64,000 nt of DNA from Phenylobacterium sp. (GTDB lineage: Bacteria; Pseudomonadota; Gammaproteobacteria; Enterobacterales; Alteromonadaceae): contig JBLGCB010000002.1 in the NCBI GenBank assembly GCA_047617105.1, forward strand, positions 9,184-73,183, read 5' to 3'. The notes beneath the pieces are model-generated. The model made no database searches. It worked only from the letters and a program-made list of their open reading frames with translations, and was not told the origin of the DNA. A program made the translations under genes and the position numbers. This document shows, one piece after another, positions 20,033 through 55,962 of the stretch (its first letter is position 1; every line of letters starts with the position of its first letter).

Positions 20033-20053
20033 ACGGCCATAAACCGCTCCCCA

Positions 20054-21685
20054 CTAAGCAAACAACCTCTCTTCCCCCACATCAAACGCATAAATCTGGC
20101 CGCAATCAAGTTTATAAAGCCGGTCAGCGGCGTCAAAGTAATGGTCATCATGGCTGATGGCAATCACGGTTTTGCCAGCCCGTTTTAACTCAGGCAATAT
20201 CTGACGATAAAACACCTCTCGAAATACCGGGTCCTGGTCTGCCGCCCATTCATCAAGCAGCAATACCTGACGGTCTTCCATATATAACAGCAATAAGGCC
20301 AGTCGTTTTCTTTGTCCTTGCGATAACGAAGTGGTCGATAACCGCCCCTCGTTGACCGAGACTTTATGGTCGATGGCAAGGCGTTTAAGGTAGTGCTCAA
20401 CCTTGGCGTCATCAACGCTGTTATCTGTGCCAATCACATCGGTGAACAAAAAGAAGTTGGCAAAGATGGCCGAAAAACAATGGCGCAAGTCATCAACATT
20501 ATCTGCCGTCACGGTTTGGTGGTTTAACCTCACCTCACCTGAGGTCGGTAAATATAATCCGGTGAGTAATTTGGCCAAGGTGGATTTTCCGCTACCATTA
20601 CCACCCACAATAAATATCAACTCTCCGGCATACACTTCAAAATCAACCGGACCAAGCACAAAACCCGGTTCATCATTTTGCGCGGGATATTGATAAGCCG
20701 CAGCCTTTAAGCTGAGCGATTTAAAGTTCACTATCGATTGCACATGCATCGGTTTACTCTGGTCATTGTCAGTCAGTTGCAACCGATTAATCGCCGCCAA
20801 GGCGACATTGCCGCGGATCACCGCTGGAATACTGTCGAGCACCATCGACAGCGGGGTGCGCAAGAACATCAGCGCCAAGATATAACCCACCACAATCTCT
20901 TGACCAATAGAGGGCAGGATCACGCCACAGTAGAAAATCACCCCGACTAAGATAAACACCAACATGGTAGTCCAGTTAAGGTTGATGGCCCATAATACTT
21001 CCGCTTTCACCGACTCTTCACTAGAGGCTTTGGCGGTCGGTATAAACTGTTGATCAAACAAAAAGCGCCGCCGATTTGGATTAAGAGCCAGTTCATTACG
21101 CCCCTCAACCACCGCTTGGTATTGGCTAAACAAACGGTCATCCAGTTGCCTAACTTTGGTCAACATCAAGGTCAAACGGTCACTGAGTTTGGCATCAGTC
21201 CACACCCCCAGCACCACCACAAAACTAACAAAAGTGAACAGCAATGGCGATAACCAACACAGGTAGATTAAACCCGCCGCCAGCAATAAACCGTTATAAA
21301 GAGCCACTGGCAACTGTTTGGTGGCGTTAGATACCGCAGTCACATCCCGGTTAAGCACGTTATAAATCGCGGTGGCACCGAGTTGTTCTTGACGTTCGAT
21401 TGAGGTATTTAATATTCGATTGACCAGTTTTTTGCGCAACTGGTAAACCATGTTACAACCGATTTTCACCAATGCGACTTGCGAGAAAATACTGCTGACC
21501 AACAGCAGCAGCAACAAACCACTATAGGCCAGTACGGTGGTGCTGATGTCCTGCAAACCATTTTTTAGCGCATGATTAATGCCTGCAATAATGGCAATAC
21601 CAGCACTGGCACTAATGGCGCTGGCAAAAATCGCCATCGCCACGCCCGACTTCGCTTGGCTCAATAATTGTTTGGTGATGTTCAT
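20054..21685 (-). CDS. PvdE/SyrD-type cyclic-peptide/siderophore ABC exporter (fused TMD-NBD)
   Basis: N-terminal 6-TM region. Walker A GGNGSGKST, signature LSQGQRKRLAL, Walker B LLLDEWAADQDP. ATGA overlap with the last NRPS gene. Confidence 0.85.
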   Translation of the reverse strand: MNITKQLLSQAKSGVAMAIFASAISASAGIAIIAGINHALKNGLQDISTTVLAYSGLLLLLLVSSIFSQVALVKIGCNMVYQLRKKLVNRILNTSIERQEQLGATAIYNVLNRDVTAVSNATKQLPVALYNGLLLAAGLIYLCWLSPLLFTFVSFVVVLGVWTDAKLSDRLTLMLTKVRQLDDRLFSQYQAVVEGRNELALNPNRRRFLFDQQFIPTAKASSEESVKAEVLWAINLNWTTMLVFILVGVIFYCGVILPSIGQEIVVGYILALMFLRTPLSMVLDSIPAVIRGNVALAAINRLQLTDNDQSKPMHVQSIVNFKSLSLKAAAYQYPAQNDEPGFVLGPVDFEVYAGELIFIVGGNGSGKSTLAKLLTGLYLPTSGEVRLNHQTVTADNVDDLRHCFSAIFANFFLFTDVIGTDNSVDDAKVEHYLKRLAIDHKVSVNEGRLSTTSLSQGQRKRLALLLLYMEDRQVLLLDEWAADQDPVFREVFYRQILPELKRAGKTVIAISHDDHYFDAADRLYKLDCGQIYAFDVGEERLFA

Positions 21686-24600
21686 GATTCTGCTTTTTCC
21701 TTTTTAAAAACCACTTTTTCTACGCTCAACTGTTCAATGTTTTGTTGCAACTGAGCGGCCAATTGAGGATGGTTCAATATGGCGTAGTGATCAGCATCAA
21801 TGGTCCAACTTTGTATCAGCACACTTGAATGCGCTTGCCAAATTTGCGGCGGTGAAACAAAACCATTGCCTCGCCAAAGCCATATCGGGTTATCGATGAC
21901 TGGCGTGGCAGCTTGATACAACTGTTGTTTGAATTGCCAACGTTGCATCATCCGTTGCTCTATATCCTCAGCCGATGTTTGATCAACAAGGTTATTTATC
22001 TGCGGGTGACGTAATAATTGCTGCATAGCCTGTTGATAATTGCCACCCAGATTACTGCTGATGAGTTCGACCTGTTCGGACGATAGTCCAATCTGCTCTA
22101 GGGCGATATAGTCATTAAAATCTTCAATCAGCTGCTGCGCATCATCCGTCACCGTCAGTGTTTGCGCCAAATCAAAATCAATAATGGCCACTGCACTAAT
22201 GGTAAAACCCAGTGCCTTCATCCGTTTTGCCATCAATACCATCAATTTACCGCCCAAACTCCAACCAGTAAGGATCAGCGGTTTTGATTTTAACGGCAAC
22301 AGTTGTTCAATATAATCATCGACGATAGTGTCAATATCGCCGAGTTTGGCCGATAGCCATAATTGCGAGTCAGCGGTGATACCAACAATATCCACCACAT
22401 GTGATAAGTTAGCAATCAAGCCCTGATGGTAATTAAAATGCCCAGTATGCGAGTGCATCAACACCATGGTGTGTTTGCTGTTGGCTTGGGCCAAGGGGAT
22501 CAGCCGTGGGTTTGAAGTGTTTTTATGTTGTAAATTCCCTTGTAAATAGTGAGCCAAAGCGCGAATGGTTTTATAATGAAACAAACAATCATTGGCCAGC
22601 TCGCAGCCCAATTGTTGACGAATTTTGCCAATCACCTTTATTGCCGCCAGTGAATGACCACCAAGCGCGAAAAAATCATCCATCACGCTGATATGATGGT
22701 TTTGCAGTACCTGCTGCCAAATGGCCAACAGTTGCTTTTCAAGACTATTTTTTGGCGTCACCAGCACTTGCGGCTGTTGCGCTTGTTCAAGCAGCTTGTG
22801 GCGATCAATTTTACCATTGGCATTCAGCGCAAACTGATGCAGCTGAACAATACTGTTGGGGATCATGTAATGGGGCAAACGCTGTTTTAAATAGTCGAGC
22901 AGCCCCTGTTGACTGACCTCTTTACCCTTAACCGCAATCACAAAGGCCAGCAGTTTGACCATATCTGAATTCTTGTCGACCAGTACATGGGCCTGAGCAA
23001 CATCTGGGTGTCCACTCAACTGACATTGAATCTCATCCAGTTCTACCCTGAATCCACGAATTTTGACCTGATGGTCACGTCGACCGACAATTTCAATACT
23101 GTTATCGCCATGGCGTACGGCCAAATCGCCAGTTCGATACATCACCCCTGTACCAAAAGGATTGTTAACAAAAACCTCACTGGTGCGTTTACTGTCATTA
23201 AGGTAACCCCGACTCACGCTAGAACCCGCAATCACCAGTTCTCCGCATTGTCCGCTCACTGTGGCTTGCTGATGATTATCCAACAGATAAATTTGGCTAT
23301 CGCCAATGGCGGTGGTCAATCGGCTGCTTGGTGTTAATAAATCGACTTCACCATACAATACTCCGACCGTGGTTTCGGTCGGACCATAATGGTTGTAGAT
23401 TCGACACCCAGACCCGGCTGTCAGCTTAGTCAGCTGTTGTAACAACGAATGGCTTATCGGCTCTCCTCCCAATACCAACACTTGAGTCGGCAGCTTAGCC
23501 TTTAAAACCGCAATATCTGAACATAACAGCGCTTCAAGATGCGATGGCACAATTTTGAGGCAATCGAGCGGCGGCAGCTCATCTTTATCGAGTAAAATCA
23601 CGCAACTGGCGGTCAACCAGCCGGGGAATAACATAGTATTGCCCAAATCGGCCACCAAGGTCGAAATCAAGCCATAATTGCCTTGCTGCGGTAACGCCAG
23701 TTGTTCAATCACACTCTGGCTATAATGCATCAGTTGTTGATGTTCAACTTGCACCCCTTTAGGCTGACCTGTCGAACCCGAGGTATATAACACATAGGCC
23801 AGCTGATTTAGTGCAATGGTCACCGGGGTAAATGTGGCTACGGTTTGCTGCAATTGCGCTACAGTAACGATTTGATTAGCGACTAAAGCGGCATTGTCAC
23901 TCACCACCTCTTCACTTACCAAGACCAATGGATTGGCATCATTGATGATTTGTTGTAACCGCGCTTGCGGTTGTTCAACATCTAACGGTAAATAGGCTGC
24001 GCCCGTTTTTAATATTGCCAGTAAAATAATCAACGATTGGGCACCACGTGGCAGACACAATGCCACAATTTGTTCTTTACCCGCGCCTGCTTGTTGTAAC
24101 ACTCCGGCGTATTGGTTGCTCAGCTGATCGAGTTGTTGGTAGCTGTAATGAATGTCGCCATCGGTTAACGCCCTATGGTTAGGGAACGCCTGTGCTTGCA
24201 TAGAAAACAGCTCAACAAAGTTATCTTTAATGGCCAACTCAGTCACCGCCTGAGGATGTTCATCGGCCAACCAGCAATTGTGCTGTTGTATCGGTTGATT
24301 GGGCTGCGCCAAAACTGCGGCCAACAAAATCAGGTAGCGTTGTGATAACCGCTGCATCGCTTGCTGTTGGTAACGGGCACTGTTGTAGCACAATGTCAGT
24401 CCGGCAGCTCCCTGTGCTGTGCAGCTATAATGCATCAATAGCGGACAATGGCTGACCAAACCACCACTTTGCATCTGTGCTTGTTGCGCCTGCTGATGCC
24501 AATAAAATCCGGCATGGCAGCGACTATCAATGGCGCTAACATATTCCTGATATTCAAGCATCTCAGTCAATAACGCGCTGCTGCCCAAGCAGGCGCTTGG

Positions 24601-25467
24601 TAAATCACAGCTATCGAGTTGGTAAAACGGCATCGGTAGGGGTTGGGTAAATAATCCGAGGCTGGTATCGAATTCTTCATAATCATGGCGACAGTCATGA
24701 AAATAATCGAGTTTAAGGGCATCAACCCCCGAAAGTTTGCCAAGCAATACTGCCCACACATTTAACAGGATATGTGCTGGCTGACAATCGTACTGCCCTG
24801 CCCGCGCGAGCACTTGTTGCTGCAATACCTGGGGGAGTTCAACAGCAATACTTTGTTCATCATTCCTATCTGGATGGTTATCGCCTGTTTGGCATTCGTT
24901 TAATCGTGCCTCAGGCAATATTTTTAAGCTTAGATTTTGCCAAAACTCAATACCAGCCTGGCCTTGCTCATCATTGAGTAAGGTATTAATCCAATCACGA
25001 TACTCGCCATATTGAATATCTGGTACGGTGATCACAGCGTCAGCGTCGTCTAGTAGTTGATAGATTTTATCAACGCTATAATCATCGAGGGTCAAAGCAG
25101 AAGCAGCCAATAAGACCTTAACCCCACCCTGCTCTCTTTGGTTTTGCGGCCAACACCAACACAATAAATGCGGTGCCTGTTCGGTAAAAACCACCTTCGC
25201 TTGTTGTTCAAGCTGGCTCTGATGGCTAACAACATCATCATAAACTCGAAAGTCCAACCGTGGCGCTTGCTGCACAGAACGAACCACATCAAAACCCTGT
25301 GGCACGCCATAATCACAGCTTAACACCTGATGGTGCAACATCAATTGCTGTAACTTACTTTGCGCTTTTGTCATATCTAGCTCTGCAAAACTTAACCAAA
25401 AGTAGCGCTTCGAATCGACATTCAGTAATTGCTGTTGTCGCGTTAACGCTTGTCCTAAATCGTTCAT
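21682..25467 (-). CDS. NRPS 4: histidine-less C-like (interface-type) domain - A(Asp code) - T - TE
   Basis: The N-terminal ~400 aa have the C fold, but the HHxxxDG position reads ASALTLDDYS (nt 25076-25105). A motifs: YVLYTSGSTGQPKGV, NHYGPTETTV, YRTGDLAV, GRRDHQVKIRGFRVELDEI, NANGKIDR. T: FFALGGHSLAA. TE: GWSLGG. The ATG at 25467 gives an ATGA overlap with the upstream stop; the track start at 25476 is 3 codons longer. Confidence 0.95.
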   Translation of the reverse strand: MNDLGQALTRQQQLLNVDSKRYFWLSFAELDMTKAQSKLQQLMLHHQVLSCDYGVPQGFDVVRSVQQAPRLDFRVYDDVVSHQSQLEQQAKVVFTEQAPHLLCWCWPQNQREQGGVKVLLAASALTLDDYSVDKIYQLLDDADAVITVPDIQYGEYRDWINTLLNDEQGQAGIEFWQNLSLKILPEARLNECQTGDNHPDRNDEQSIAVELPQVLQQQVLARAGQYDCQPAHILLNVWAVLLGKLSGVDALKLDYFHDCRHDYEEFDTSLGLFTQPLPMPFYQLDSCDLPSACLGSSALLTEMLEYQEYVSAIDSRCHAGFYWHQQAQQAQMQSGGLVSHCPLLMHYSCTAQGAAGLTLCYNSARYQQQAMQRLSQRYLILLAAVLAQPNQPIQQHNCWLADEHPQAVTELAIKDNFVELFSMQAQAFPNHRALTDGDIHYSYQQLDQLSNQYAGVLQQAGAGKEQIVALCLPRGAQSLIILLAILKTGAAYLPLDVEQPQARLQQIINDANPLVLVSEEVVSDNAALVANQIVTVAQLQQTVATFTPVTIALNQLAYVLYTSGSTGQPKGVQVEHQQLMHYSQSVIEQLALPQQGNYGLISTLVADLGNTMLFPGWLTASCVILLDKDELPPLDCLKIVPSHLEALLCSDIAVLKAKLPTQVLVLGGEPISHSLLQQLTKLTAGSGCRIYNHYGPTETTVGVLYGEVDLLTPSSRLTTAIGDSQIYLLDNHQQATVSGQCGELVIAGSSVSRGYLNDSKRTSEVFVNNPFGTGVMYRTGDLAVRHGDNSIEIVGRRDHQVKIRGFRVELDEIQCQLSGHPDVAQAHVLVDKNSDMVKLLAFVIAVKGKEVSQQGLLDYLKQRLPHYMIPNSIVQLHQFALNANGKIDRHKLLEQAQQPQVLVTPKNSLEKQLLAIWQQVLQNHHISVMDDFFALGGHSLAAIKVIGKIRQQLGCELANDCLFHYKTIRALAHYLQGNLQHKNTSNPRLIPLAQANSKHTMVLMHSHTGHFNYHQGLIANLSHVVDIVGITADSQLWLSAKLGDIDTIVDDYIEQLLPLKSKPLILTGWSLGGKLMVLMAKRMKALGFTISAVAIIDFDLAQTLTVTDDAQQLIEDFNDYIALEQIGLSSEQVELISSNLGGNYQQAMQQLLRHPQINNLVDQTSAEDIEQRMMQRWQFKQQLYQAATPVIDNPIWLWRGNGFVSPPQIWQAHSSVLIQSWTIDADHYAILNHPQLAAQLQQNIEQLSVEKVVFKKEKAES

Positions 25468-28400
25468 GAAACACACTCCTTGGATAATTGCTCTAATTTA
25501 ATCGGTGGCGAAGTGGCGGTTTTGCCCGGTTGATAAATATCACCCATGGCCACGGCGATTTTACGTTCACCGCTAAAGGGGTCTCTGGCGTGGGCGGCGA
25601 GCATATTGTCGAGCATCACCACATCAGATTTTTGCCACTCAAAGCGCACCGCACAGCTTTCATAGAGTTCGCTGATGGTATCAATCACGAGTGGCTCTAT
25701 CGGGCTTAAATCGCCATAACAAACATTACGCGGCAGGTTATCGGTGCCGCCAGTGGCGAGCAAATGCTGAACCACTTCGGCCTCTAAAAAGCTGGCATGA
25801 TGGAGCTGAATTTGATTAAAGAAGCTTTTTTCGCCAGTGACCGGATGGGTGATAATCGCCGGACAACGTTGGCTAATGTGAAGGTTAAGGTTGTCTTTAC
25901 CATACCAGCGCCACTGAATGTTGTTTTGCTGGCAAAGTGCTTCGACCTCACTGCGTGATTGGGTTTTGAAAAAGTGTTGCCAGCTCACATCCAAATCGGT
26001 GAAGTTGCGGATATAACACAGCTGTTTTTGTTCGAGCTTTTGCCGCATCGCCGTAGGCAGTCGACGCACCATTTCGCGGCAATCAACTATCGGCGTCGCC
26101 CCACCGCTGGCAGCGGGCTGACGACAATAAAACCATTGCCGCCGTGGCCAGCGATGTTGATGGGAGCTTTCGTTATGAAACATGATCATCTGGTCTTGCG
26201 GATACGGGGTCGATTGATAAATTTTGCTGCCAAGCTCATTTTTCGGCAAGTCGCCATACTGGCCATAAAGCTGGGGATAGATGGCGACACAAAACTGTTC
26301 AAATTCAAACTCAGTCGGCAAGTTAAAACCACGAAAGACAATGCCGCCGTGGGTTTCGAGCCAGCGCATAATTTGCTGTTGGTTTTGTTGCGCCCAGCTT
26401 AACGCATCCAGCGCCTGGCTATGACATTGCACCAACAGTGGAAAAGGCTTATCGGCGTTTAGTGGTGCAGCGCTCACTGGTGCTGCTGAACCGGCTTTTT
26501 TCAGCTTGCCCAGTTTGCTTTTCTTGGCACTGGTTTTTGTTTTGGCCTTTGCTTTGCTGGCAAAAGCATTCAGTGGCGTTTGTGGCTTGTCTACCAGTTG
26601 TTCGAGCAAATGCGTCAATTGCTGACTAAAGTTTTCGATGGTGGTTTTATTAAATAACTGACTATTGAACACCCAGTTAAAAAGCAACTCATCGCTGGAA
26701 TCATCACAAAACAACGCCATATCGAATTTAGAATGCTGCTGTTCAGTATCCACCGCCGTTAAGGTCAAGTCTTTCGGTTGCGCGACGTTATCTGACTCAG
26801 CCTTAACCCCAGTGCTGACCCCCATCACAAACAACACTTGAACCAGCGGATGCACGCCGGTTATGCGCTCAGGATTGACCGTTTCGACGATTTGCTCAAA
26901 CGGCACACTTTGATGGTCAAAGCTGTCTAAACAGTTTTGCCGCACGTTTTGCAAATGATCACTAAAACGCAAAGTGGGTGTCAGCTGCATCCGCAATGGA
27001 ATTAAGTTAACAAAGAACCCCAGCATATCTTCTGTTTGTAAATGGGCACGATTGGCCACATCGGTGCCAATGACAATGTCCTCATTTCGGGAGTTTGCAC
27101 GGGTTTGTTGATGAATCAAGGCGCTATAAGCACTGATTAACAGCATAAACAACGAACATTGCTGCTGTGTTGCCAATGTCTTTAATTGCTGACTCAGTGT
27201 TGCTGATAAAGTAAAACTGACCGCATCCCCCTGACGCTGACTGGCCTCTCGCTGATGGTCAAAAGGCAACCGTTGTTGGGTCGGTAGTGCGGCCAGTTTT
27301 TGACGCCAAAAATCGATGCCAGCCTGTTGTTCTGCTTTGACCAGCGGACTATTTTGCCAATGGGCATAATCGAGATAATCCACTTGGTGAGGGGGTAATG
27401 TGATCGCTTTACCATCCACCGCTTGCTGATAAGCCAGCATCAGTTGGTTGAGCAGCAAGGTCATTGACCATTCATCTGAAGCGATATGGTGTTGCACCAA
27501 CTGGCAGTAGTGTTGCTGATTATTGATGCTATACAGGTAAACCTTCAGTGGTGCTTGTGTGGTTAAATCAAAGGTTTTATTGGCTGCGGTGTCGAGCAAT
27601 TGCGTTAGCTGTGATGGTAATATATCTGAAACCATCAACGGCACCTGCAAATCAGGGTTAAACCTTTGTACAGCACTGCCATTTACCTGATGATAAGTCA
27701 CCTGCAAAATGGCATGATGCCGGGTCACCGCCAATAAGGCTTGCTCTAACGCATCGAGCTGCAAATCTCCTTCAATACGCACCACGGTTTGCATATTAAA
27801 ACTGCTGTCTTGCGGGTTCAGCTGTTGCATAAACCATAAACGGTTTTGGCCATCACTCAGCGGCAAATCTTGTTGTCTGTCAGTTATATGCACCATCGGC
27901 TGATATTGGCTCACCGTCAGTAACTTGGCCTGCGCTGATAGCTGCGGATGTTCAAATAACGCTTTCAGTGGCAGATTAAAGCCAGCTTTATTGAGCCGCG
28001 CTTTTAACTGTGCCGCCAACAATGAATGGCCGCCCAGTAAAAAGAAGTTATCACTGGGGTTAAGCTGCTCGACCTTTAACAAACTCTGCCAGATATCGGC
28101 CAATTGCTGCTCTTTAGCGGTTTTTAGCGTGGTTATTGATGATGTTGTTGTCTGTACTTTCACTTCAAGCTGTGACAATGCCCTGCGGTCAACTTTACCA
28201 TTGCTGTTGAGCGGTAAAACTTTCAGCGGCTGATAGCGTTCAGGCAACATATAACTCGGTAAATGTTGAGCCAGAGAGTGATTCAAGCTAGCGCTATCTA
28301 CTACGGTGCTAGCAACAAAGAATGCAGTCAGATGATGGTCGTTTAGCACCACCACGGCTTCGCTAATATCCGGATATTGTAACAACCTGGTTTCGATATC

Positions 28401-34169: not shown

Positions 34170-34172
34170 GAT

Positions 34173-47065: not shown

Positions 47066-49224
47066 TAAATCATTCCTTCCATTGGTGGTTTGGCTTGTTT
47101 TGAACGGGTTTGGTCGATTTGAGCACTGGTGGCAATGCTGGCCAGTTGTTGCGCCAAGGCTTGAATCGATGGGTAAGACCAGCACAAATCAGCACTTAAG
47201 GGCACATCTAGCTGCTTTGATAATTCATGGGTCAGAGTCATGGCATCAATAGAATCTAAGCCCAATTGCGCCAACTGTTGGTATGGTTTTAACTGTGTGG
47301 CAGGTAAGTTTAGGCGCTGAGCAATCCAGTGGATGATCCAGTGACCAATCGCCTGATCAAGGGAATCGGCATCAAATTGACTAATACGCCTATTGGCTTG
47401 ATGGTAATTGGCTTGATGGTAATTGGCTTGATGGTGATTGTCATCTGCCACCGGTTTATGCCAGCTGGCGACGGTTTGCAGTTGCCCTTGCAAATACGCC
47501 TCACGACAGGCGACCCGTTGTATTTTGCCCGACGAGGTCTTGGCCAAAGTCAGTGGTTTTATCAACATCACCGCAGCCAGTTTCAACTCATGAGCCTGGG
47601 CAATTTGTGCAATCACTTGCTCAATCAATGGTTGATAATGGCTGTGCTGATCACCCTGTTGCTTATGGTGTTGCCTATTATGCTGATAGGTTTTTCGTGA
47701 CAGTTCCTGCACCAATACCAACTCATGATTATGCTCGTCGGTCGCTACTTCGAAGATGGCCCCGCCGTGAGGGGTGAGTTGTTCGCTAAAGACATTCAGT
47801 GATTCTTCAATATCTTGTGGATAATAATTGCGACCGTTAATAATAAACATTTCTTTGCAGCGGCCGCTGACATAAAGCTGGTTGTTGTCGATAAACCCCA
47901 GATCGCCAGTCGCCATAAAACCGCCTTGGTTGGCTACCTGTTGATTGAAGATGGTTTGATTGATATCCGGCTTTTGCCAATAACCTCGGCTGATGCAATC
48001 GCCTTTAATCATGATCTCACCGACATAACCATCGGGTAATAACTGACGGCTGCCCTGATGAACAATTTTGACCGTGACTTCGGCCATAATTTTACCGCTA
48101 CAGGCCATATCTACCAGATTTTTGGCATTGCTATCATCGCTCATCACCGCTTTGCCTAGCGATAACTTGTCTTTATCTAAGCTAAGCAACTTAAAGCATT
48201 GATGCTCGGCGGTGGCGGTCACCAATAAACAGGCTTCTGCCATGCCATAACTGGGTTTAAGTGCCTCAGGGGCAAAACCCGTCTCGGCAAAAGCTTGGCT
48301 GAAGCGAGTTAAGGTGCGGGCATTGATGGGTTCAGCACCATTGATAAACACTCGTAATGACGATAAATCGAGCTCTGCCTTCTCTGCGCTGGTGACTTTG
48401 CTTAAGGCCAAATCAAAGATAAAGTTGGGTCCTGCGGTGACGGTTGCTTTGATATCAGTAATCAATTTCAGTAAGCGAAAAGGTTGCTGGGCCACGGTGG
48501 CCGATGGCATTAACCAGGTGCTTGCCCCCACCAACAGCGGGGTTAGAACACCGCCGACAAAACCCATATCATGATACAAGGGCAACCAGTTGACGAACTT
48601 ATCTTGCTCACTAAAATGATAACTGCGCTGAATCAGCCGGGTATTACTCAGCAGGTTTAGATGGCTTAACATCACCCCTTTTGGGTTACCGGTAGAGCCT
48701 GAACTATATTGAAAATAAGCGATATCATTGCCATCAATGGCCGGTTTGCGCCACTGTTTAGCAATCTCTAGGCTATCAGCTGTAGATAACTTATCCACAG
48801 CAATTGTTTTAGTATGGCTATTGCCAGCATTTATCCAGCCATCGACTGGTTTTTGTTGTGCGACGTTATGTAGTACCAGCGCTGGTTCGCAATCTCGCAC
48901 TATGGTATCTAGCCGAGTCCAGTCGCGTTTTTTGCTGTTTGGTGGGTAGGCGGTAACGGCAATCACATTGGCATAAATACAGGCAAAAAAGCCAATCACA
49001 TAATCAATGCCAGCGGGTAACACGATAAGCACCCGATCACCAAATTGAGTGTGCTGAGCAAGTTCTGTGGCCAGTGTTTTAACCCGTTGTGATAGCGCAG
49101 CATAACTGATACTGCGGTCTGATTCGATAAAGGCCAATTGGTCAGGACGACTGCTGGCCTGGTGTTCCAGCACTTCAATCCAGTTATTTACGGTGTTGCT
49201 TAATGGTTCAATTTTTGTTGTCAT
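47065..49224 (-). CDS. Fatty acyl-AMP ligase fused to an acyl carrier protein (lipo-initiation module)
   Basis: FAAL-type N-terminus (RVLIVLPAGIDYVIGFFACIYANVIAVTAYPP), YSSGSTGNPKGV, TGDLGF. C-terminal ACP with LGLDSIDAMTL. Confidence 0.9.
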   Translation of the reverse strand: MTTKIEPLSNTVNNWIEVLEHQASSRPDQLAFIESDRSISYAALSQRVKTLATELAQHTQFGDRVLIVLPAGIDYVIGFFACIYANVIAVTAYPPNSKKRDWTRLDTIVRDCEPALVLHNVAQQKPVDGWINAGNSHTKTIAVDKLSTADSLEIAKQWRKPAIDGNDIAYFQYSSGSTGNPKGVMLSHLNLLSNTRLIQRSYHFSEQDKFVNWLPLYHDMGFVGGVLTPLLVGASTWLMPSATVAQQPFRLLKLITDIKATVTAGPNFIFDLALSKVTSAEKAELDLSSLRVFINGAEPINARTLTRFSQAFAETGFAPEALKPSYGMAEACLLVTATAEHQCFKLLSLDKDKLSLGKAVMSDDSNAKNLVDMACSGKIMAEVTVKIVHQGSRQLLPDGYVGEIMIKGDCISRGYWQKPDINQTIFNQQVANQGGFMATGDLGFIDNNQLYVSGRCKEMFIINGRNYYPQDIEESLNVFSEQLTPHGGAIFEVATDEHNHELVLVQELSRKTYQHNRQHHKQQGDQHSHYQPLIEQVIAQIAQAHELKLAAVMLIKPLTLAKTSSGKIQRVACREAYLQGQLQTVASWHKPVADDNHHQANYHQANYHQANRRISQFDADSLDQAIGHWIIHWIAQRLNLPATQLKPYQQLAQLGLDSIDAMTLTHELSKQLDVPLSADLCWSYPSIQALAQQLASIATSAQIDQTRSKQAKPPMEGMI
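47392..47436 (-). repeat. 15-nt in-frame tandem repeat x3 (encodes HQANY x3) in the FAAL-ACP linker
   Basis: ATTGGCTTGATGGTR x3. Confidence 0.9.
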
Positions 49225-49405
49225 GATAATGTCTTATTGTTAATGAATGAAAAACCTTGTAAGTGCTCAGCGTGATTAGATTTTGCTTCAGAACAAGGCC
49301 TTACTTCGCGAAAACAGTCGCACGGAAAATAGGCGCATATGACCATATGCAACTGTTTGAGTACGAAAATAACGCCGTTATGATGCAAAAGATAAGTGCG
49401 CTGGG

Positions 49406-50374
49406 TTAGGCCATGGCTACAACGACTTTACGCTTGCCCTTATAGCTACTACGTCCATGGGCAGCCAACATATTGTCGAGCATCATCACATCGCCTTGTT
49501 GCCAGCGAAAAGACACTTTGCATTGCTCCAAAATATCTCTGATATGCACCAAAGTGGCGTGTTCAATTGGGCTGCCATCGCCGTAATAAACATTTCTCGG
49601 CAGATTCTCTTCACCCACAATCGATATTAGGGTTTCGCGAATGACCGGCTCTAGGTTGGAGATATGAAATAAATGGGCTTGGTTAAACCACACCATTTCT
49701 TTGGTGGTAGGATGCTGCGCCACAGCCTGACACACCTGGCGGGTTTGCAATTCGCCGTCGGCTTTCCACAGATAGCTGATTTGGTTGTTATCACAAAAGC
49801 GTTCGACATCACTTTTATTGCTGGTGGTAAAGGCTTCTTGCCACGCTAAATCCAGGCCATTGCCGTAGTTGCGCACATACAACAAGCCGTGTTTGGTAAA
49901 CTTGTCTTTCACCTGTGGATCCATTTTTTGATAGATTTTACGGCTGTCGGCAATGGGCGTTTCACCTCCCTGCTCGGCGGCAGTCACACAATGAAACCAA
50001 ATTTTTTGTGGCCAGCTTCGAGTATAAGCCTGTTCATTGTGCAGCGGGATCACCTGATGGGCGGGATATTCGGTTGAGGTATAGACCCCTTTAGCCACTT
50101 CACTGCGAGGAGTAGAGGCATAATCATAATTGAGCAGTTGCTGACCAAATGCATTGACGAACTGAGTAAATTGATGCTCATCGCACATCGCAAAACCCCG
50201 AAACACCAGCCCACCAATATCGTTAAGATATTGTTCTGCCAATTGTTTTATTTCATCAAAGCAATAAGACCAACTGTTGTTATCTATCGGGGTCACCAGC
50301 AACGGCAATGCTGAGTGGCTCAGTAGCGGCGCAATGGCAATGGATTTAAACGGGTTTGGTTGACTCAAAAACAT
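49406..50374 (-). CDS. Stand-alone TauD/TfdA-family (SyrP-like) aspartyl beta-hydroxylase
   Basis: GGLVFRGF, PLHNEQAY (H-x-E) and MLDNMLAAHGRS (distal His). Clearly paralogous to the C-terminal domain of NRPS 3. Confidence 0.8.
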   Translation of the reverse strand: MFLSQPNPFKSIAIAPLLSHSALPLLVTPIDNNSWSYCFDEIKQLAEQYLNDIGGLVFRGFAMCDEHQFTQFVNAFGQQLLNYDYASTPRSEVAKGVYTSTEYPAHQVIPLHNEQAYTRSWPQKIWFHCVTAAEQGGETPIADSRKIYQKMDPQVKDKFTKHGLLYVRNYGNGLDLAWQEAFTTSNKSDVERFCDNNQISYLWKADGELQTRQVCQAVAQHPTTKEMVWFNQAHLFHISNLEPVIRETLISIVGEENLPRNVYYGDGSPIEHATLVHIRDILEQCKVSFRWQQGDVMMLDNMLAAHGRSSYKGKRKVVVAMA

Positions 50375-50432
50375 AGAACATCCTCATTTCTTGTTGACTC
50401 AAGACATTGTCAATCGGTATGGGAATGGATCT

Positions 50433-50470
50433 TAATGCAAATCATTCGTATTTGCAAATGCGAATGGTTG
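50433..50470. promoter_or_regulatory. Two adjacent Fur-box-like sites in front of the hydroxylase-FAAL-NRPS operon
   Basis: TAATGCAAATCATTCGTAT (12/19 to GATAATGATAATCATTATC), immediately followed by TTGCAAATGCGAATGGTTG. They lie 59-96 nt upstream of the 50374 start. Confidence 0.45.
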
Positions 50471-50623
50471 TTATTTATATTTTATTTAAATTGGATTTAA
50501 ATTGAACTTACGTTGGGGTGTTATTAAACAAAAAATACAGGAGAGGTAAGCCCCGCAAAGGAGGCTTATGAATGGTTAACCTGAGAATGAAGTGAGGTTA
50601 TGAAAAAGTCATGGGTAATCGGA

Positions 50624-52267
50624 TTAATATTCCACAACAGGCACTCTACCACCCCCTTGAACACCTGCTTTGTTGTGAAGTCTCCACCCTGAATATCCCA
50701 AAACTATACCCACCACCAGCAAGCCGATATCAACCACCAAAACTGTTTTAACCCCCTGATGCCATAAACCGATAATGACCTCACTCAACACCAGCCAATC
50801 GTGAAACACCAAACCCAGTAGTAACACCGACGACAGGCCAAGTAAACCGCTTAAGCAACGCTTTGTATTGTCCTTCTTAGTGCAATAAAGCAAGTAAAGT
50901 CCGGTAATCCCCAGCGTTAACACAAAGCTGTAGACCAGCCAATCTGAACGCTCCGCAACTTGCACAGGTAACTGAGCAGGCAGCTGAGGCGGTAACAGGC
51001 GCTCTGCCAAAAAGGCCACTACCGTGGCCAACACCACCCCCACGCTACCGAGCAGGGTGAAATGTGTCACCAATGCCACCGTTTTGGCCGATGATTTTCT
51101 TTGCCGGGCTTTCTTATCAATCCATAATAAATTGCCCGTGACAATAAGCACACAGACCCCCAAACCGAGCAAGAAATAAATCAACCGCAAATCAGTACCT
51201 GCGTAATTGCCAAAATGGAGTGTCGAGACCACGGCCAAACCACTTTTTAACGCATTACTGTGCTCGCTATCCTGTTGGAATAATATTGCGCTTGGGCCTT
51301 GGCCAATGCGATAAGCCACTTCAAAACGCTGACCAAAACCGCTTTTTGATTCACCACGAAAATGAATCGCCGCCCCTTCATCGCCATAATTAAACATCCG
51401 GATTGAGCTGGGTTGTTGTTGATACTTTGCCACGGTCTGTGAAAATAAAAGGTCAATATCGGGGCTTGACCACGGCTTATCCTGCCATGGCTGACTGACA
51501 GATAAATAACCAGAATCTTCACGGAAGGTTTGTTCATCCCCTTGGTAAAGCACCACCACAAAGGCAATTTGATAGATGATCAATAAGTTAAAAATAAGGC
51601 CACTAATGGCGTACATCACGGTAAAAGGCAGGGTCATCACGCCAATCACGGTATGCATATCGAGATATTTTCGGCGTTTATCTTGCGCTGGTTGATATCT
51701 AAAAAATTGGCTGAGCAGCTTGCGTGCATGGATCACAATACCCGACACCAGTGCAAAAAAGAAAAACAAGGTAACAAAACCAATCACTTCATAACCAAAT
51801 GAACTGTTTAATTGGTAATGTAAGCGATAGATAAATTTGGCCAAAAAAAACTGATCATCATCGCCGATGATCTCGCCTGTGGTTGGGCTGATGATGACGG
51901 TTGATATTTTGCTCTTTGTGACTGGCTCAGCCGCTACATCACCCCGTTCTGGCACGGTAAAAAAGTGAGCTCGTAATCGATAATAAGGCATATGCTCACT
52001 AGGCATCACCAAGGTGGCACGGCGCTTGGCATCAAACGGTTTGGCTTGCATCACCCGCGCGAACACTGCACTAATGGGTAGAGCTTGGTCCTTACCAGAT
52101 TGAGAATGAGCGGGAAGCTGATAGTGAGGTTGGAATGCCCATTGATGAATTTCTTCCTTAAACAAGGTGATGGAACCGGCAAAAAACACCACAAATAATA
52201 GCGCAGATACAATGAGTCCCAACCAGCTATGGGCTTCGACTAAGCGCTTTAAAAACTGTTTATCCAT
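50624..52267 (-). CDS. PepSY-associated TM-helix protein (PiuB/FoxB-like, putative ferric-siderophore reductase)
   Basis: The N-terminus LVEAHSWLGLIVSALLFVVFFAGSITLFKEEI is typical of PepSY_TM proteins. Multiple TM helices, a periplasmic PepSY-like insert, siderophore-locus context. Confidence 0.7.
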   Translation of the reverse strand: MDKQFLKRLVEAHSWLGLIVSALLFVVFFAGSITLFKEEIHQWAFQPHYQLPAHSQSGKDQALPISAVFARVMQAKPFDAKRRATLVMPSEHMPYYRLRAHFFTVPERGDVAAEPVTKSKISTVIISPTTGEIIGDDDQFFLAKFIYRLHYQLNSSFGYEVIGFVTLFFFFALVSGIVIHARKLLSQFFRYQPAQDKRRKYLDMHTVIGVMTLPFTVMYAISGLIFNLLIIYQIAFVVVLYQGDEQTFREDSGYLSVSQPWQDKPWSSPDIDLLFSQTVAKYQQQPSSIRMFNYGDEGAAIHFRGESKSGFGQRFEVAYRIGQGPSAILFQQDSEHSNALKSGLAVVSTLHFGNYAGTDLRLIYFLLGLGVCVLIVTGNLLWIDKKARQRKSSAKTVALVTHFTLLGSVGVVLATVVAFLAERLLPPQLPAQLPVQVAERSDWLVYSFVLTLGITGLYLLYCTKKDNTKRCLSGLLGLSSVLLLGLVFHDWLVLSEVIIGLWHQGVKTVLVVDIGLLVVGIVLGYSGWRLHNKAGVQGGGRVPVVEY

Positions 52268-52532
52268 ACGAAAACACCACCCCTGGCCACAACATCAAAG
52301 TATTTAAACCGGCAGAAAGTAACAACCCGCCACCACAACGTCGCCATGCTTGCCAGCCATTTTTACAGCCATAACAAGCCACCATCACCGCCACCCACAA
52401 CACAAAAGCCAACAAGACGCTAACCAATAACTTGCTGTCTGTGGCAACAGGCAATAACACATTAATATTAATGGCCAAAGAGGCAGATAACAAAGCACCC
52501 GCAACAATGGCCGCAAAAGTCTTAGACCACAT
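52260..52532 (-). CDS. Small integral membrane protein (90 aa)
   Basis: Three hydrophobic helices. 8-nt overlap with the PepSY gene start and 11-nt overlap with the upstream ORF suggest coupling. Confidence 0.5.
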   Translation of the reverse strand: MWSKTFAAIVAGALLSASLAININVLLPVATDSKLLVSVLLAFVLWVAVMVACYGCKNGWQAWRRCGGGLLLSAGLNTLMLWPGVVFSYG

Positions 52533-52905
52533 GCATCACTCCTGACCACTGGGCAGACTCTGTCAATCCACTGTGGATCATCATAATAATTGCAGTGCAG
52601 GTAACACCACCCGCCAAGGCAAACGGCAATAAACGCGCCCTTAAGTGGCCGTGGCATAACACAATAGTCGGCCACATCAACATAATGCTCACCAGTACCA
52701 GAATGGCCGAAATAGCCGGCGAATAAAATTGCAGGTTTAGCCACCAACTGCAAGGCAAACATAGCGCAAATATCGACCACGCAGGCACAGTGGGTAGCCG
52801 TTTAGTAAGCAATTGTTGATGAGGCGATGCTAAAAAACTGGCTAAACAGCCAGTCCATAAAAGCATCACGGGTATTAGCTCAGAACTTAAATAAAGGCTT
52901 AACAT
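52522..52905 (-). CDS. Small integral membrane protein (127 aa; DUF3325-like guess)
   Basis: Four hydrophobic helices. First gene of a three-gene minus-strand unit. The start codon abuts a Fur-like site, so the true start may be internal. Confidence 0.45.
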   Translation of the reverse strand: MLSLYLSSELIPVMLLWTGCLASFLASPHQQLLTKRLPTVPAWSIFALCLPCSWWLNLQFYSPAISAILVLVSIMLMWPTIVLCHGHLRARLLPFALAGGVTCTAIIMMIHSGLTESAQWSGVMHVV

Positions 52906-52928
52906 AAATACGAATCATTGTTATTTAC
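52904..52928. promoter_or_regulatory. Fur-box-like site (minus-strand membrane-protein operon side)
   Basis: ATAAATACGAATCATTGTTATTTAC shares the core AATACGAATCATT with the site at 53080-53107. Confidence 0.4.
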
Positions 52929-53079
52929 AATTACCAAGCATTCTAGTTGATCTTGAGGATAATTTAAATAGTTAACTAAATAACTTTTAAATTAAGGGCT
53001 TAATCAAGGCTGTAGTTAAAATATTTGCCAGTTTCAGTATTTTTACCCTTGTGCTTATGGTCTTAACCCAGTAAAGTAA

Positions 53080-53107
53080 ATATCAAATACGAATCATTCT
53101 CATTAAG
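53080..53107. promoter_or_regulatory. Fur-box-like site 13 nt upstream of the TonB-dependent receptor start
   Basis: ATATCAAATACGAATCATTCTCATTAAG; 12/19 to the Fur consensus when aligned on AATCATT. Confidence 0.45.
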
Positions 53108-53119
53108 GTAAAGTCACTA

Positions 53120-55303
53120 ATGAAAGCTAAAAGAGTACACAACATGATCAATCCTCCTTCGATATTGAAAAACACCGTGTTTATCTCGGCAGTCTCAATC
53201 GCTACCTCATCATTGGCGATGGCCGCTGAATCCACAGCCACGCAAAAGCCCGCTTCAACAGACACAGAAGTGATCACCGTTAAAGGTCGTGCTGCGCAGT
53301 TTTACTTCGTCGAAGAGTCGATGATGGCAACCAAAACACCGACCAGTTACATGGACTTACCCCAGTCTTTGCAGGTATTGAGTACTGAACTGATCCGTGA
53401 TCAGGCAGCCCGACAAACCTCCGATTTGTATCGTTCAATCTCAGGTATCACTCAATTTAGCTATTCAGGCGTGACAGCCAGAGGGTTTAGACAAGATCAG
53501 GTGCGTTATGATGGCGTGCAGGGCGACCCCTACTCTGGTTTTTCTATTCCCCAATTATTTAATATCGAACAAGTGGCGGTATTAAAAGGCCCTACCGGCA
53601 TGTTATATGGATCTGGGCAGCCCGGCGGATTGCTCAATTACATCAGCAAAAAACCCAAATTCAGCCAACAAACTGAACTCGCTTTTATTGGCGGCAGCGA
53701 CAGTTTGCGTGGTGCCTATGCGCAAACCACCGGGCCGATGAATAAGGATTCAAACTTGGCTTATCGCTTGGCGGGTTTTAGCCAAAACAAAAAAGGTTTT
53801 CGCAATAACACCGATGAAAAAAATACCTTATTATCAGGCGGCTTAACCTGGTTAGCCAGTGATGCGGTTGATTTGACCTTGCAATATGATTATATCGATC
53901 AAGATTTGGCTGGCCATCGCCTGCGCGGTGTACCTGTCGACGACAACGGCAACTTTTTAACAGATATCAGTTACAACGCCAATGAAAAATCAGACTTTCA
54001 GCGTTTAAGCGCCGATGTATGGCAGCTAATTGCCAACAGCGAGATATCTGACAACCTCACCAACCGTACGGTTTTACGCCGTTTAGACAATGAACGTACC
54101 CAGCAATATCACGAGAATAGAGGTTTAGCGGATGATGGTGTCTCTATGGTCCGTGAATTTCGCGACCAATTCAGAACCAATGAAGAGTTAAGCCTAACCA
54201 CCGATTTTGTTTATCAATTAACCACTGGTGGTATTGAGCATCAACTATTGTTTGGTGGTGATTATTTTACCAGCGACATGTTTTATGCCGCTAAACTGGG
54301 TCGTGGTGCGCCATCATTGATACCCGATTTAAATATCATCAACCCAGTTTATGAAAACAACAGCGCCAATTACTTATTGCTACAGCGCCCGGACTCAGTC
54401 AGCGAAAGTCGTCGCACCGGGTTATATGTTCAAGATCAGTTCCGCCTCAACGAAAGATGGCTTGGCGTGGTGGGTGGTCGATATGACAAATTTGAAGACA
54501 GCACTTTTTCAGGAAGTTCGGCTTCTGACCAGTTCAACCTTTCAGACAGCAGTTTTAGCCCTCGTATTGGTGCCATTTATCAACCTGATGAAAGCATGTC
54601 GGTATTTGCCAATTACACCCAAGGTTTTGCGCCCCAGAGCCTTTATAACCAAATACAAGACAGTGATGATAGCGACACCATCGGCAAGCTTAATCCAGAA
54701 ACAAGCACTCAGCACGAAATAGGGATTAAAAACCAGTGGTTAAACAACAGCTTATTAACCACCTTTACCGCTTATAACATTGTTAAATCAGACGTCGTGG
54801 TGGCGAACCCAGCCGATACCGGGGTCAATGATGGTATCGCAGCCATGTTGCAAGTGGGTGAAGTGACCAGCAAAGGCATCGAAATTGATGTGATCGGCGA
54901 TTTGGGTGAACACTGGACCGGCACCATCAACTACGCCTATAACCAGGCCAAAATTACTGGCGGTGCGCCTGATGCATTAAGAAATACGGTGGGCGATGAG
55001 TTTGTTAATGCCCCTGATCATACCTTAGGCATCTGGACCCGCTGGGCCATTCCTAGCCTTGATTCTTCTTTTGCCATTGGTGCTGATTATGTCAGTGAAC
55101 GAATTAGTTTAAGTGGTCAAAAAGTCAAACCTTACACGGTTTGGGATGCCAGCTGGCAAACCACCATTAACCAGTTTGAGCTTCAGCTGAATCTCAAAAA
55201 CCTGTTTGATAAACGTTATGCCACCAGCGGTTTTAACCAACGTAATGGCCATTTTCCGGGTGAACCTAGGAGTATTTTGGTACAGTTGAGTTATGCGTTG
55301 TAG
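53120..55303 (+). CDS. TonB-dependent siderophore receptor
   Basis: Signal peptide. Plug motifs DLPQSLQVLSTELIRDQ and VAVLKGPTGMLYGSGQPGGLLNYISKKP. 727 aa, with a beta-barrel C-terminus. Confidence 0.9.
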   Translation: MKAKRVHNMINPPSILKNTVFISAVSIATSSLAMAAESTATQKPASTDTEVITVKGRAAQFYFVEESMMATKTPTSYMDLPQSLQVLSTELIRDQAARQTSDLYRSISGITQFSYSGVTARGFRQDQVRYDGVQGDPYSGFSIPQLFNIEQVAVLKGPTGMLYGSGQPGGLLNYISKKPKFSQQTELAFIGGSDSLRGAYAQTTGPMNKDSNLAYRLAGFSQNKKGFRNNTDEKNTLLSGGLTWLASDAVDLTLQYDYIDQDLAGHRLRGVPVDDNGNFLTDISYNANEKSDFQRLSADVWQLIANSEISDNLTNRTVLRRLDNERTQQYHENRGLADDGVSMVREFRDQFRTNEELSLTTDFVYQLTTGGIEHQLLFGGDYFTSDMFYAAKLGRGAPSLIPDLNIINPVYENNSANYLLLQRPDSVSESRRTGLYVQDQFRLNERWLGVVGGRYDKFEDSTFSGSSASDQFNLSDSSFSPRIGAIYQPDESMSVFANYTQGFAPQSLYNQIQDSDDSDTIGKLNPETSTQHEIGIKNQWLNNSLLTTFTAYNIVKSDVVVANPADTGVNDGIAAMLQVGEVTSKGIEIDVIGDLGEHWTGTINYAYNQAKITGGAPDALRNTVGDEFVNAPDHTLGIWTRWAIPSLDSSFAIGADYVSERISLSGQKVKPYTVWDASWQTTINQFELQLNLKNLFDKRYATSGFNQRNGHFPGEPRSILVQLSYAL

Positions 55304-55337: not shown

Positions 55338-55377
55338 AACAACAAAACCCGGTTAGCAGCCGGGTTTTGTTGTTTTT
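55338..55377 (+). terminator. Rho-independent terminator of the receptor gene
   Basis: AACAACAAAACCCGG-ttagcag-CCGGGTTTTGTTGTTTTT. Confidence 0.8.
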
Positions 55378-55389
55378 GCCGCAAGCGGC

Positions 55390-55878: not shown

Positions 55879-55962
55879 GATAACTCATTAAAAACTTGAA
55901 TAGCTAAGCCTAACAGGATAAAACAACTGTTTAAAAAATTGCACTGATACATCCCTGTAAGC

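Follow-up and report, generated by a model that had tools for sequence, protein, structure and literature searches.

What do the four nonribosomal peptide synthetases (NRPSs) encoded at positions 20054-55303 of the window make, and does their product serve iron acquisition? The window is the whole 64 kb stretch of DNA that was analyzed. We consider it very probable that this locus is an iron-regulated unit for the biosynthesis and uptake of a lipo-heptapeptide siderophore containing β-hydroxyaspartate (β-OH-Asp), and the gene cluster is well formed and should make a fatty-acid-tailed, seven-residue, iron-binding peptide.

The open reading frame (ORF) list and the sequence confirm seven co-directional minus-strand genes, running from 50374 down to 20054 and joined by stop/start overlaps, as an earlier sequence-only reading of the DNA had described. 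The first gene, tauD (49406-50374), encodes a stand-alone TauD/TfdA-family Fe(II)/2-oxoglutarate dioxygenase of 322 aa (PF02668, E value 2e-49). It is followed by a gene for a fatty-acid–AMP ligase fused to an acyl carrier protein (FAAL-ACP; 47065-49224, 719 aa, Pfam AMP-binding, DIP2-like and PP-binding domains). The synthetase genes are NRPS1 (42494-47065, 1523 aa), encoding module 1; NRPS2 (34173-42497, 2774 aa), encoding modules 2-4; NRPS3 (25464-34169, 2901 aa), encoding modules 5 and 6 and the condensation half of module 7; and NRPS4 (21682-25467, 1261 aa), encoding the remainder of module 7. The last gene (20054-21685, 543 aa) encodes an ABC exporter, a permease/ATPase fusion of the PvdE/SyrD family. 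The TAATG overlap of FAAL-ACP and NRPS1 (47067 to 47063, minus strand) was seen in the sequence, and the ORF coordinates place ATGA overlaps at 42497-42494, 25467-25464, and 21685-21682; the one separated pair is tauD and the FAAL gene, 181 nt apart. A terminator-like hairpin 3′ of the ABC gene (20018-20040, minus strand) ends the biosynthesis/export operon. It is overlapped by a plus-strand ORF of 160 aa (19550-20032) that has a single hydrophobic segment and repeats DQRFEKV three times, for which a family search gave no match and whose status as a real gene is uncertain.

The cluster is not unique to this DNA but is shared by several cultured genera. Whole-cluster synteny (tauD, FAAL-ACP, four NRPSs, ABC exporter) is found in Thalassomonas haliotis (CP059693.1, around 856-890 kb), Thalassomonas sp. 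RHCl1, Pseudoalteromonas sp. A25, and an ENA metagenome-assembled genome (MAG), and further NRPS4 orthologs are present in T. viridans, P. caenipelagi, Pseudoalteromonas sp. S16_S37, and Marinobacterium jannaschii. The relatives of NRPS2, taken at 100% query coverage and 50-54% identity, come from T. haliotis, three Pseudoalteromonas strains, a Colwelliaceae strain, and metagenomes. Scanning species-representative genomes with NRPS2, by peptide patterns that were too specific, yielded nothing but generic NRPSs of Paenibacillus/Bacillota (29-39% identity). NRPS4 itself is identical to NCBI MFT4924011.1, labeled "MAG: Phenylobacterium sp." Because the G+C content of the window is about 47% and the nearest relatives of the genes examined are from Psychrosphaera, Thalassomonas, Pseudoalteromonas, Algicola, and Moritella, that label looks mis-binned or mislabeled, and the source looks like an Alteromonadales-type marine gammaproteobacterium.

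Domains were assigned with Pfam and with a map built from cluster-internal seed sequences. Written with C for condensation, A for adenylation, T for carrier, E for epimerization, and TE for thioesterase domains, the assembly line reads FAAL-ACP / TubC_N dock-C-A-T-E / C-A-T-C-T-C-A-T / C-A-T-C-A-T-C-TauD / C-like-A-T-TE. This reproduces exactly the string, and the count of seven aminoacyl carrier domains, that the sequence-only reading had taken from core motifs. Alongside six A domains, the line has seven aminoacyl T domains and the ACP, and no carrier lacks its serine. The FAAL domain (47470-49176) and the ACP (47146-47340, with its serine within LGLDSI) form the loading protein. The best specific NCBIfam matches of the FAAL gene are fatty-acid–AMP ligases (403, 382, and 365 bits), ahead of the best CoA-ligase model (274 bits); no NCBIfam model reaches its equivalog cutoff. 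The first C domain (HHIAADF), a putative starter C by its position, is distinct from the LCL-like and DCL/dual-like groups of the cluster. The model scores, the fused ACP, the subsequent docking domain, and this first C domain together support lipo-initiation as it had been proposed: the FAAL would load a fatty acid onto its own ACP, and the first C domain would acylate the T1-bound Asp.

At the other end of NRPS1, the C-terminal domain is an E domain, with EGHGRE and FNYLG motifs, a phmmer match to the GrsA E domain (3e-59), and a TIGR01720 score of 105 bits, above the cutoff. An alignment of the nine C-type domains revealed that HHxxxD is kept in all except the N-terminal domain of NRPS4, which has ASALTLDD at the active-site columns instead of HHxxxDG. 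This C-like interface domain (24268-25467, residues 1-400) is a weak C-domain match (Pfam E value 4e-16, NCBIfam 1e-6), and the C domain immediately before the fused TauD is intact (HHIASDE). On the HHxxxD status of these domains, the last module consists of C-TauD at the end of NRPS3 and an inactive C-like domain-A(Asp)-T-TE in NRPS4, the TE carrying a GWSLG motif.

To predict the peptide, Stachelhaus codes were taken by alignment to GrsA, whose own code was recovered correctly as DAWTIAAICK. Three A domains have Asp codes: A1 (DLTKIGHIGK), A4 (DLTKFGHVGK), and A6 (DLTKVGHVGK). For comparison, DLTKVGHI is the SrfAB Asp code, and DLTKIGHV is found at the β-OH-Asp positions of Pseudomonas syringae pyoverdine (PMC3207962). 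A3 (DVWHFSLIDK) and A5 (DILQIGVVWK) are read as Ser and Gly, respectively. The A2 code (DIESIGTVTK) is Lys-like, since its first eight residues are identical at six of eight positions to the BacB-M1 Lys code, DAESIGSV (PMC3207962). The specificity codes give the order acyl-Asp-Lys(like)-[A-less module]-Ser-Asp-Gly-Asp and thereby agree with the acyl-(D-)Asp-X-X-Ser-Asp-Gly-Asp proposed earlier, where X would be a basic, Lys-like residue. They support a predicted product of acyl-Asp-Lys(like)-Lys(like)-Ser-Asp-Gly-Asp, assembled by the six A and seven T domains and presumably released by the terminal TE. The calculated [M+H]+ for a C12:0 acyl chain is about 994.49 with three hydroxylations and 978.50 with two; the acyl series predicted for the Ser variant with three hydroxylations is 966.46, 994.49, 1022.53, and 1050.56, each value being 15.995 lower with two. 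The Asp-Lys...Asp-Gly-Asp frame is invariant across the cluster relatives. The residue 4 code differs among them (Ser, Gly, and two other codes), a variation that disfavors residue 4 as a ligand or as a conserved cyclization point. In T. haliotis, T. viridans, Pseudoalteromonas sp. A25, and P. caenipelagi this code is DVQHFCLIDK or DVWHFILVVK, which would shift the masses of their products.

Stereochemistry was read from the domains that follow each carrier. Module 1 has its E domain, followed by the DCL-type C domain at the start of NRPS2. The C domains after T2 and T3 (C2 and C3) have an N-terminal LFHHMIDPD motif and share 40-41% identity with the C domains of arthrofactin-type lipopeptide synthetases from Pseudomonas, whereas the remaining C domains here reach 21-31%. 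C2 and C3 therefore appear to belong to the dual E/C clade, and that placement would make residues 2 and 3 D-configured. With the E domain of module 1, residues 1-3 are all likely to be D.

Module 3 of NRPS2 (37557-39143, minus strand) raises the question of how many residues are incorporated. Only a Pro-rich linker lies between C2 (37863-39143) and T3 (37557-37748), with no A domain, and such a C-T module might be skipped or inactive, giving a hexapeptide with one Lys-like residue. Loss of the A domain could be degenerative, since it is still present in two of the 12 family members (a MAG and T. viridans), with the basic-type code DAEDIGV[VI]TK. We nevertheless regard the hexapeptide as improbable. 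The A-less C-A-T-C-T-C-A-T layout predominates, with 10 of 12 members spanning three genera; C2 keeps its active-site motif (HHIISDH) and T3 its carrier serine; and both are about as conserved as the adjoining domains (54-55% identical to T. haliotis, versus 56-61% for the neighbors). The A-less module appears to be a family trait under normal sequence constraint, rather than damage. The A2 code is invariant in all 12 members, and the simplest reading is that the single Lys-like A2 domain would charge T2 and also T3.

Two putative aspartyl β-hydroxylases are encoded in the cluster. The stand-alone TauD has an HNE iron-binding motif and is 40% identical to the TauD domain fused to the C-terminus of NRPS3 (25548-26396, minus strand, residues 2592-2874; PF02668 E value 2.5e-39; phmmer against the stand-alone TauD, 4e-72). 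Both arrangements recur in the relatives: tauD heads the cluster and a TauD is fused C-terminally to an NRPS. A search of the stand-alone TauD against PDB sequences gave generic clavaminate-synthase-like matches alone, and we predict that the protein is an aspartyl β-hydroxylase acting in trans. Reitz et al. are said to have defined, in 2019, the IβH-type module by a fused β-hydroxylase and an interface domain. In NRPS3 and NRPS4 we find a C-terminal TauD and an HH-less C-like domain directly before an Asp-specific A domain (A6), which is the fused β-hydroxylase/interface arrangement. A free tauD, together with Asp modules 1 and 5 that are plain C-A(Asp)-T without an interface domain, corresponds to the stand-alone TβH/SyrP type. 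β-hydroxylases and "interface domains" are both modeled as parts of siderophore modules by antiSMASH 8.

Asp β-hydroxylation, which the sequence-only reading had claimed, is supported by this architecture of C-TauD, HH-less C-like domain, and A(Asp)-T, plus the stand-alone TauD. By analogy with potashchelin, the fused TauD with its interface domain would hydroxylate Asp7 on T7 to L-threo-β-OH-Asp, and the stand-alone TauD would act on Asp1 and/or Asp5. Hydroxylated and epimerized Asp1 would give acyl-D-threo-β-OH-Asp, as at the loihichelin N-terminus. The resulting two or three α-hydroxycarboxylate pairs would bind Fe(III).

Carrier domains offer a hint as to which modules the stand-alone TauD serves. 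T1 (43877-44065) and T5 (31014-31202) share a GGDSI core, and T7 is a single GGHSL domain. A GGDSI core is typical of carriers feeding E domains, yet T5 is followed by an LCL-type C domain. In T. haliotis, Thalassomonas sp. RHCl1, and Pseudoalteromonas sp. A25, modules 1 and 5 have tandem duplicate carriers, both with the GGDSI core (in one relative at about 1033/1110 in nrps1 and 1025/1096 in nrps3), and the carriers of these modules are single in the window and in its closest relative. The pattern fits modules 1 and 5 as clients of a trans-acting hydroxylase, which would give three β-OH-Asp residues, but it is suggestive only. A tentative and rather doubtful extension is that three β-hydroxyaspartates (Asp1, Asp5, and Asp7) are the sole iron ligands of a hexadentate, all-α-hydroxycarboxylate, photoreactive amphiphilic lipopeptide, in which one A domain loads two D-Lys on successive modules and the stand-alone hydroxylase serves two distant, GGDSI-marked modules. 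We know of no characterized tris-β-hydroxyaspartate siderophore. Fe(III)-β-OH-Asp complexes are photoreactive, a property that would make the compound relevant to marine iron cycling.

Iron coordination could also be mixed. Most characterized marine lipid siderophores combine β-OH-Asp with N-hydroxy-ornithine derivatives, and the window contains an Fmt-like formyltransferase gene (2566-3528, minus strand), so the two basic residues might be N-hydroxylated and acylated by enzymes encoded outside the cluster, producing an aquachelin/potashchelin-like mixed hydroxamate/α-hydroxycarboxylate siderophore. However, the formyltransferase belongs to a conserved triad with a phage-tail-collar-domain protein (1795-2517, plus strand) and a 429-aa protein (3529-4818, minus strand) whose gene is translationally coupled to its own. 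The same three genes are found next to giant adhesin genes in Moritella marina and in T. haliotis, where they lie 4.8 Mb away from the cluster. No Pfam, NCBIfam, or PDB-sequence match was obtained for the 429-aa protein, but its AlphaFold model (pLDDT 83.7) resembles the arginine methyltransferases PRMT5, PRMT7, and CARM1 (Foldseek E value about 1e-10, TM score 0.38-0.45); members of its family, some of them longer (719-739 aa), are widespread among marine Gammaproteobacteria. The formyltransferase and the 429-aa protein were accordingly rejected as a hydroxamate tailoring pair, the conserved triad being far from the cluster and the fold PRMT-like and not that of a monooxygenase. Nor was an N-hydroxylase or flavin N-monooxygenase recognizable in the window or in the relatives' flanks. 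With the formyltransferase in an unrelated triad and no N-monooxygenase in the window, hydroxamates are unlikely. Beside the triad, a minus-strand ORF of at least 548 codons (1-1650) with a signal-peptide-like start leaves the window at its left end, at the position that corresponds to the giant adhesin genes flanking the triad in T. haliotis and Moritella.

A further alternative concerns the fatty acid, which could be a biosynthetic handle, removed by periplasmic PvdQ/CcsQ-type deacylation so that the mature siderophore is the free heptapeptide (calculated M 811.32 or 795.32). Cyanochelin C is a precedent, as a non-acylated product of a FAAL-primed line (bioRxiv 10.64898/2026.07.24.740629), and a related cyanobacterial cluster on plasmid pLBX has an acylase gene beside the last NRPS. 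We give this little credence, because there is no Ntn-acylase gene within the 64 kb window, nor in those flanks of the relatives that were seen, and marine lipid siderophores such as the potashchelins and loihichelins retain their acyl chain. The absence of an Ntn-acylase from the window makes it probable that the acyl chain is retained.

Transport genes accompany the assembly line. The ABC exporter scores 396 bits against TIGR01194 (cyclic-peptide export type; cutoff 286), and its gene is kept 3′ of NRPS4 in the relatives. Upstream of tauD, a minus-strand operon encodes a PepSY-associated TM protein (PepSY_TM; 50624-52267, PF03929 E value 8e-61) and two small hydrophobic proteins (52260-52532 and 52522-52905, the latter with an alternative start at 52866) that are translationally coupled to the PepSY gene. 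A terminator-like hairpin 3′ of the PepSY_TM gene (50536-50557) lies between this operon and the tauD promoter. On the plus strand, 53120-55303 encodes a TonB-dependent siderophore receptor with Pfam plug and barrel domains (TIGR01783, 276 bits, cutoff 223.5); past this gene, a hairpin and T-run were seen in the sequence at about 55345-55380. PF03929, hydrophobicity, and TIGR01783 thus uphold the flanking PepSY-TM protein, small membrane proteins, and TonB receptor that had been noted earlier. The PepSY_TM gene adjoins the cluster in Thalassomonas sp. RHCl1, and equivalent small genes stand beside the PepSY gene in Thalassomonas. The PepSY_TM family is commonly regarded as inner-membrane ferric-siderophore reductases of the FoxB/PiuB type. 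The ferric complex would return through the TonB-dependent receptor, with the PepSY_TM protein aiding iron release.

All three transcription units begin with a Fur-like operator. The tauD operator (50440-50469, 66-95 nt upstream of the start) is a palindrome of two inverted AAAT(A/G)CGAATG(A/G)TT half-sites with a 13-pair stem; the second (52906-52926) lies at the start of the small-protein/PepSY operon and comprises an exact 14-mer and an inverted half-site; and the third (53085-53098) precedes the start codon of the receptor gene by 22-35 nt. The exact 14-mer, AAATACGAAT[C/G]ATT, is contained in all three sites (50440-50453 on the minus strand, 52906-52919, and 53085-53098) and is found nowhere else in the window, and inverted partner half-sites are present at two of the three. 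With up to two mismatches, the 14-mer has seven matches against 1.36 expected, and seven was reached in none of 100 shuffles. These shared-motif statistics and the orthologous promoters supplanted scoring against the Escherichia coli consensus, for which the window holds 34 other matches at 13/19, mostly inside genes. The orthologous tauD promoter of the closest relative contains GAGAATGATTTTCATTAAG, matching the Fur consensus at 15 of 19 positions, the corresponding T. haliotis site matches at 14/19, and the receptor promoter of Thalassomonas sp. RHCl1 at 16/19. The comparative evidence supports probable iron regulation, and we conclude that one Fur-type repressor probably controls the three transcription units; under iron sufficiency it would sit on the operator shared by all three promoters. 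Three Fur-like sites had been proposed earlier; this stands on the shared exact 14-mer and the orthologous promoters, but not on the fit to the E. coli consensus.

Beyond the receptor, a candidate fourth Fur site (55764-55782, the sole 14/19 consensus match near the receptor) was rejected as probably compositional, because it is inside a hydrophobic mini-ORF of 28 codons (MIEFIVLIAAILQIIVLVKQLHDDNKDE, 55736-55821). A strong hairpin comes after the mini-ORF, at about 55850-55880, and two copies of an approximately 25-nt direct repeat (GGTAGAGACACACTCTAATTGAACAG, 55389-55413 and 55635-55660) come before it. No RNA family was detected in the window by Rfam at gathering thresholds.

In another reading, the product is an acidic lipopeptide with a chiefly non-iron role, a Ca2+-binding antibiotic or a surfactant with Asp and β-OH-Asp as the Ca2+ ligands, and the transport genes are coincidental neighbors. 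FAAL-ACP initiation, several Asp residues, Asp-Gly-Asp, and TauD-type hydroxylases are also known in non-siderophore lipopeptides (flavipulchrins with PflD, PMC12819058; malacidin and syringomycin, cited in PMC7100376). We nevertheless find this reading barely credible, since one 14-mer operator is common to the promoters of the biosynthetic genes, of the PepSY operon, and of the siderophore receptor, the receptor and PepSY genes are linked to the cluster also in Thalassomonas and Pseudoalteromonas, and the C-TauD/interface-A-T module is siderophore-associated according to the literature.

Several points weigh against the iron-regulated lipo-heptapeptide siderophore or parts of it. We found no product, expression, or binding data for any family member. 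The Lys assignment depends on the 6/8 code identity, and the residue may instead be Orn, Arg, or a basic residue that is modified. The sequence leaves Asp1, Asp5, or both as candidate targets of the stand-alone TauD, and the putative TβH/IβH clade assignment of both hydroxylases is drawn from architecture. The three operators match the E. coli Fur 19-mer at only 11-12 of 19 positions, which taken by itself does not exceed chance, and because this match is weak we only infer the identity of the regulator. A motif scan of the window for an MbtH-like protein or an Sfp-type phosphopantetheinyl transferase (PPTase) found neither, and with no N-hydroxylase recognizable the absences listed by the sequence-only reading hold. 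The acyl group could be lost to an acylase encoded elsewhere, as happens with cyanochelin C and pyoverdine. The window is, moreover, a MAG-derived contig, which bears on its assembly or strain-level integrity.

The remaining genes lie outside the locus. A type II thioesterase (4926-5744, PF00975 E value 3e-44), divergent from a second TonB-dependent receptor gene, might act as a proofreading enzyme for the NRPSs, whose genes are 14 kb away, but its own gene is unlinked to the cluster in the relatives. The second receptor (5985-8270) is BtuB/CirA-like and below the siderophore-receptor cutoff, and no Fur-like motif or riboswitch was found between the two genes. A DUF222 and HNH endonuclease gene (8398-10002), possibly left behind by a mobile element, stands between this receptor and an arginine biosynthesis operon (12003-19058), in a stretch of low G+C (38% at 10-12 kb). 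Past the siderophore receptor, two paralogous metalloproteases of the M4 (thermolysin/vibriolysin) type are encoded in full length at 56088-58268 and 59773-61932 (minus strand), and both have a propeptide plus two PPC domains. A third, shorter gene (62483-63169, minus strand) retains the FTP propeptide motif only.

How does the predicted siderophore compare with known ones? The predicted order differs from the published potashchelin, loihichelin, cyanochelin B, and cyanochelin C sequences. To our knowledge, it is also unlike the aquachelins, marinobactins, cupriachelin, serobactins, and variochelins. No characterized product with this residue order was found in the literature on Thalassomonas and Pseudoalteromonas lipopeptide siderophores, a search that did not extend to MIBiG. 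The earlier claim that the locus has no counterpart therefore survives as far as residue order is concerned against potashchelin, loihichelin, and cyanochelins B and C, but there are syntenic, uncharacterized clusters in other genera, and pseudoalteropeptide A fell outside the comparison. Pseudoalteropeptide A is an iron-chelating lipopeptide of P. piscicida SWA4_PA4 (Ueoka et al. 2021), according to the account in PMC10458718. No P. piscicida protein is among the full-length relatives of NRPS4 or NRPS2, which argues weakly against identity. The flavipulchrin cluster of P. flavipulchra was set aside as a different, non-siderophore NRPS-polyketide synthase (PKS) system.

Potashchelin, from Halomonas sp. 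MG34, is a close architectural parallel in several respects. Its string of FAAL-ACP-C-TauD-C-A(Asp)-peptidyl carrier protein (PCP) is accompanied by the stand-alone hydroxylase PtcA, and its authors liken the assembly line to the taiwachelin/cupriachelin type (PMC7100376). In the module next to it the fused enzyme produces L-threo-β-OH-Asp; the L-erythro form is made by PtcA in a plain C-A-PCP module (PMC7100376). Both systems start from FAAL-ACP and possess one free TauD besides one fused behind a C domain, and in both the fusion precedes another C-like domain and A(Asp)-PCP. Dual E/C domains for D-residues, TE release, and two β-OH-Asp iron ligands, predicted in the present case, are further parallels. 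Potashchelin, in contrast, is a nonapeptide of β-OH-Asp followed by Ser-Gly-Ser-Ser, a second β-OH-Asp, Thr-Ser, and cyclic N-OH-Orn, with a hydroxamate and with MbtH, PPTase, and type II thioesterase genes in the cluster; its fused hydroxylase is part of the loading protein and acts on residue 1, whereas here the fusion stands before the last residue. The locus has no hydroxamate genes, but three Asp modules, two Lys-like residues, and the A-less module.

The tail cassette is that of cyanochelins A and C, in which an Asp module, a Gly module, and C-TauD precede a separate last NRPS with TE (for cyanochelin C, Gly module and C-TauD, then last NRPS with TE; bioRxiv 10.64898/2026.07.24.740629). 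The likeness extends to the C-terminal β-OH-Asp-Gly-X motif, with its β-OH-Asp-derived end, and, in cyanochelin C, to the FAAL start and D-Lys. The last NRPS of Leptolyngbya boryana plasmid pLBX aligns with NRPS4, including the interface domain, at 30% identity over 86% of the length. The cyanochelins are unlike the predicted product in their heterocycles (oxazole or thiazoline), in their β-Ala or PKS parts, and in ending with DHABA or ethanolamine; the acylase CcsQ removes the acyl chain of cyanochelin C, and the cyanochelin-specific genes and domains are absent from the locus. Alterobactin, from the work of Reid et al. in 1993 and Reitz et al. in 2019, reportedly ends in β-OH-Asp-Gly-β-OH-Asp and has an NRPS-fused hydroxylase. 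In place of a fatty acid, however, alterobactins A and B of Pseudoalteromonas luteoviolacea have a catechol and 4,8-diamino-3-hydroxyoctanoate derived from Lys at their start, and no P. luteoviolacea protein is among the full-length relatives of NRPS4 or NRPS2. With the loihichelins, aquachelins, and marinobactins, the product would share an N-terminal fatty acyl group on D-threo-β-OH-Asp, which module 1 would yield from Asp, the E domain, and the stand-alone hydroxylase. These siderophores have a single β-OH-Asp and two N-acetyl-N-hydroxy-ornithine or cyclic N-hydroxy-ornithine hydroxamates, whereas the locus has three Asp modules and no hydroxamate machinery.

Every component of the locus is of a known kind, and it is an uncharacterized addition to a familiar siderophore class and not a new kind of system. 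What is noteworthy is the conserved A-less module, its natural variants with and without an A domain, and the possible all-β-hydroxyaspartate coordination. The result is a concrete structure prediction for a siderophore family shared by Thalassomonas, Pseudoalteromonas, Colwelliaceae, and uncultured relatives, several members of which are in culture. T. haliotis, without the A domain, and T. viridans, with it, constitute a natural experiment on the charging of an A-less C-T module, and the family variants also bear on carrier-domain choice by the stand-alone hydroxylase. If the prediction is true, the product joins the β-OH-Asp-Gly-β-OH-Asp tail of the alterobactin/cyanochelin type with the fatty-acylated marine siderophores, without a hydroxamate.

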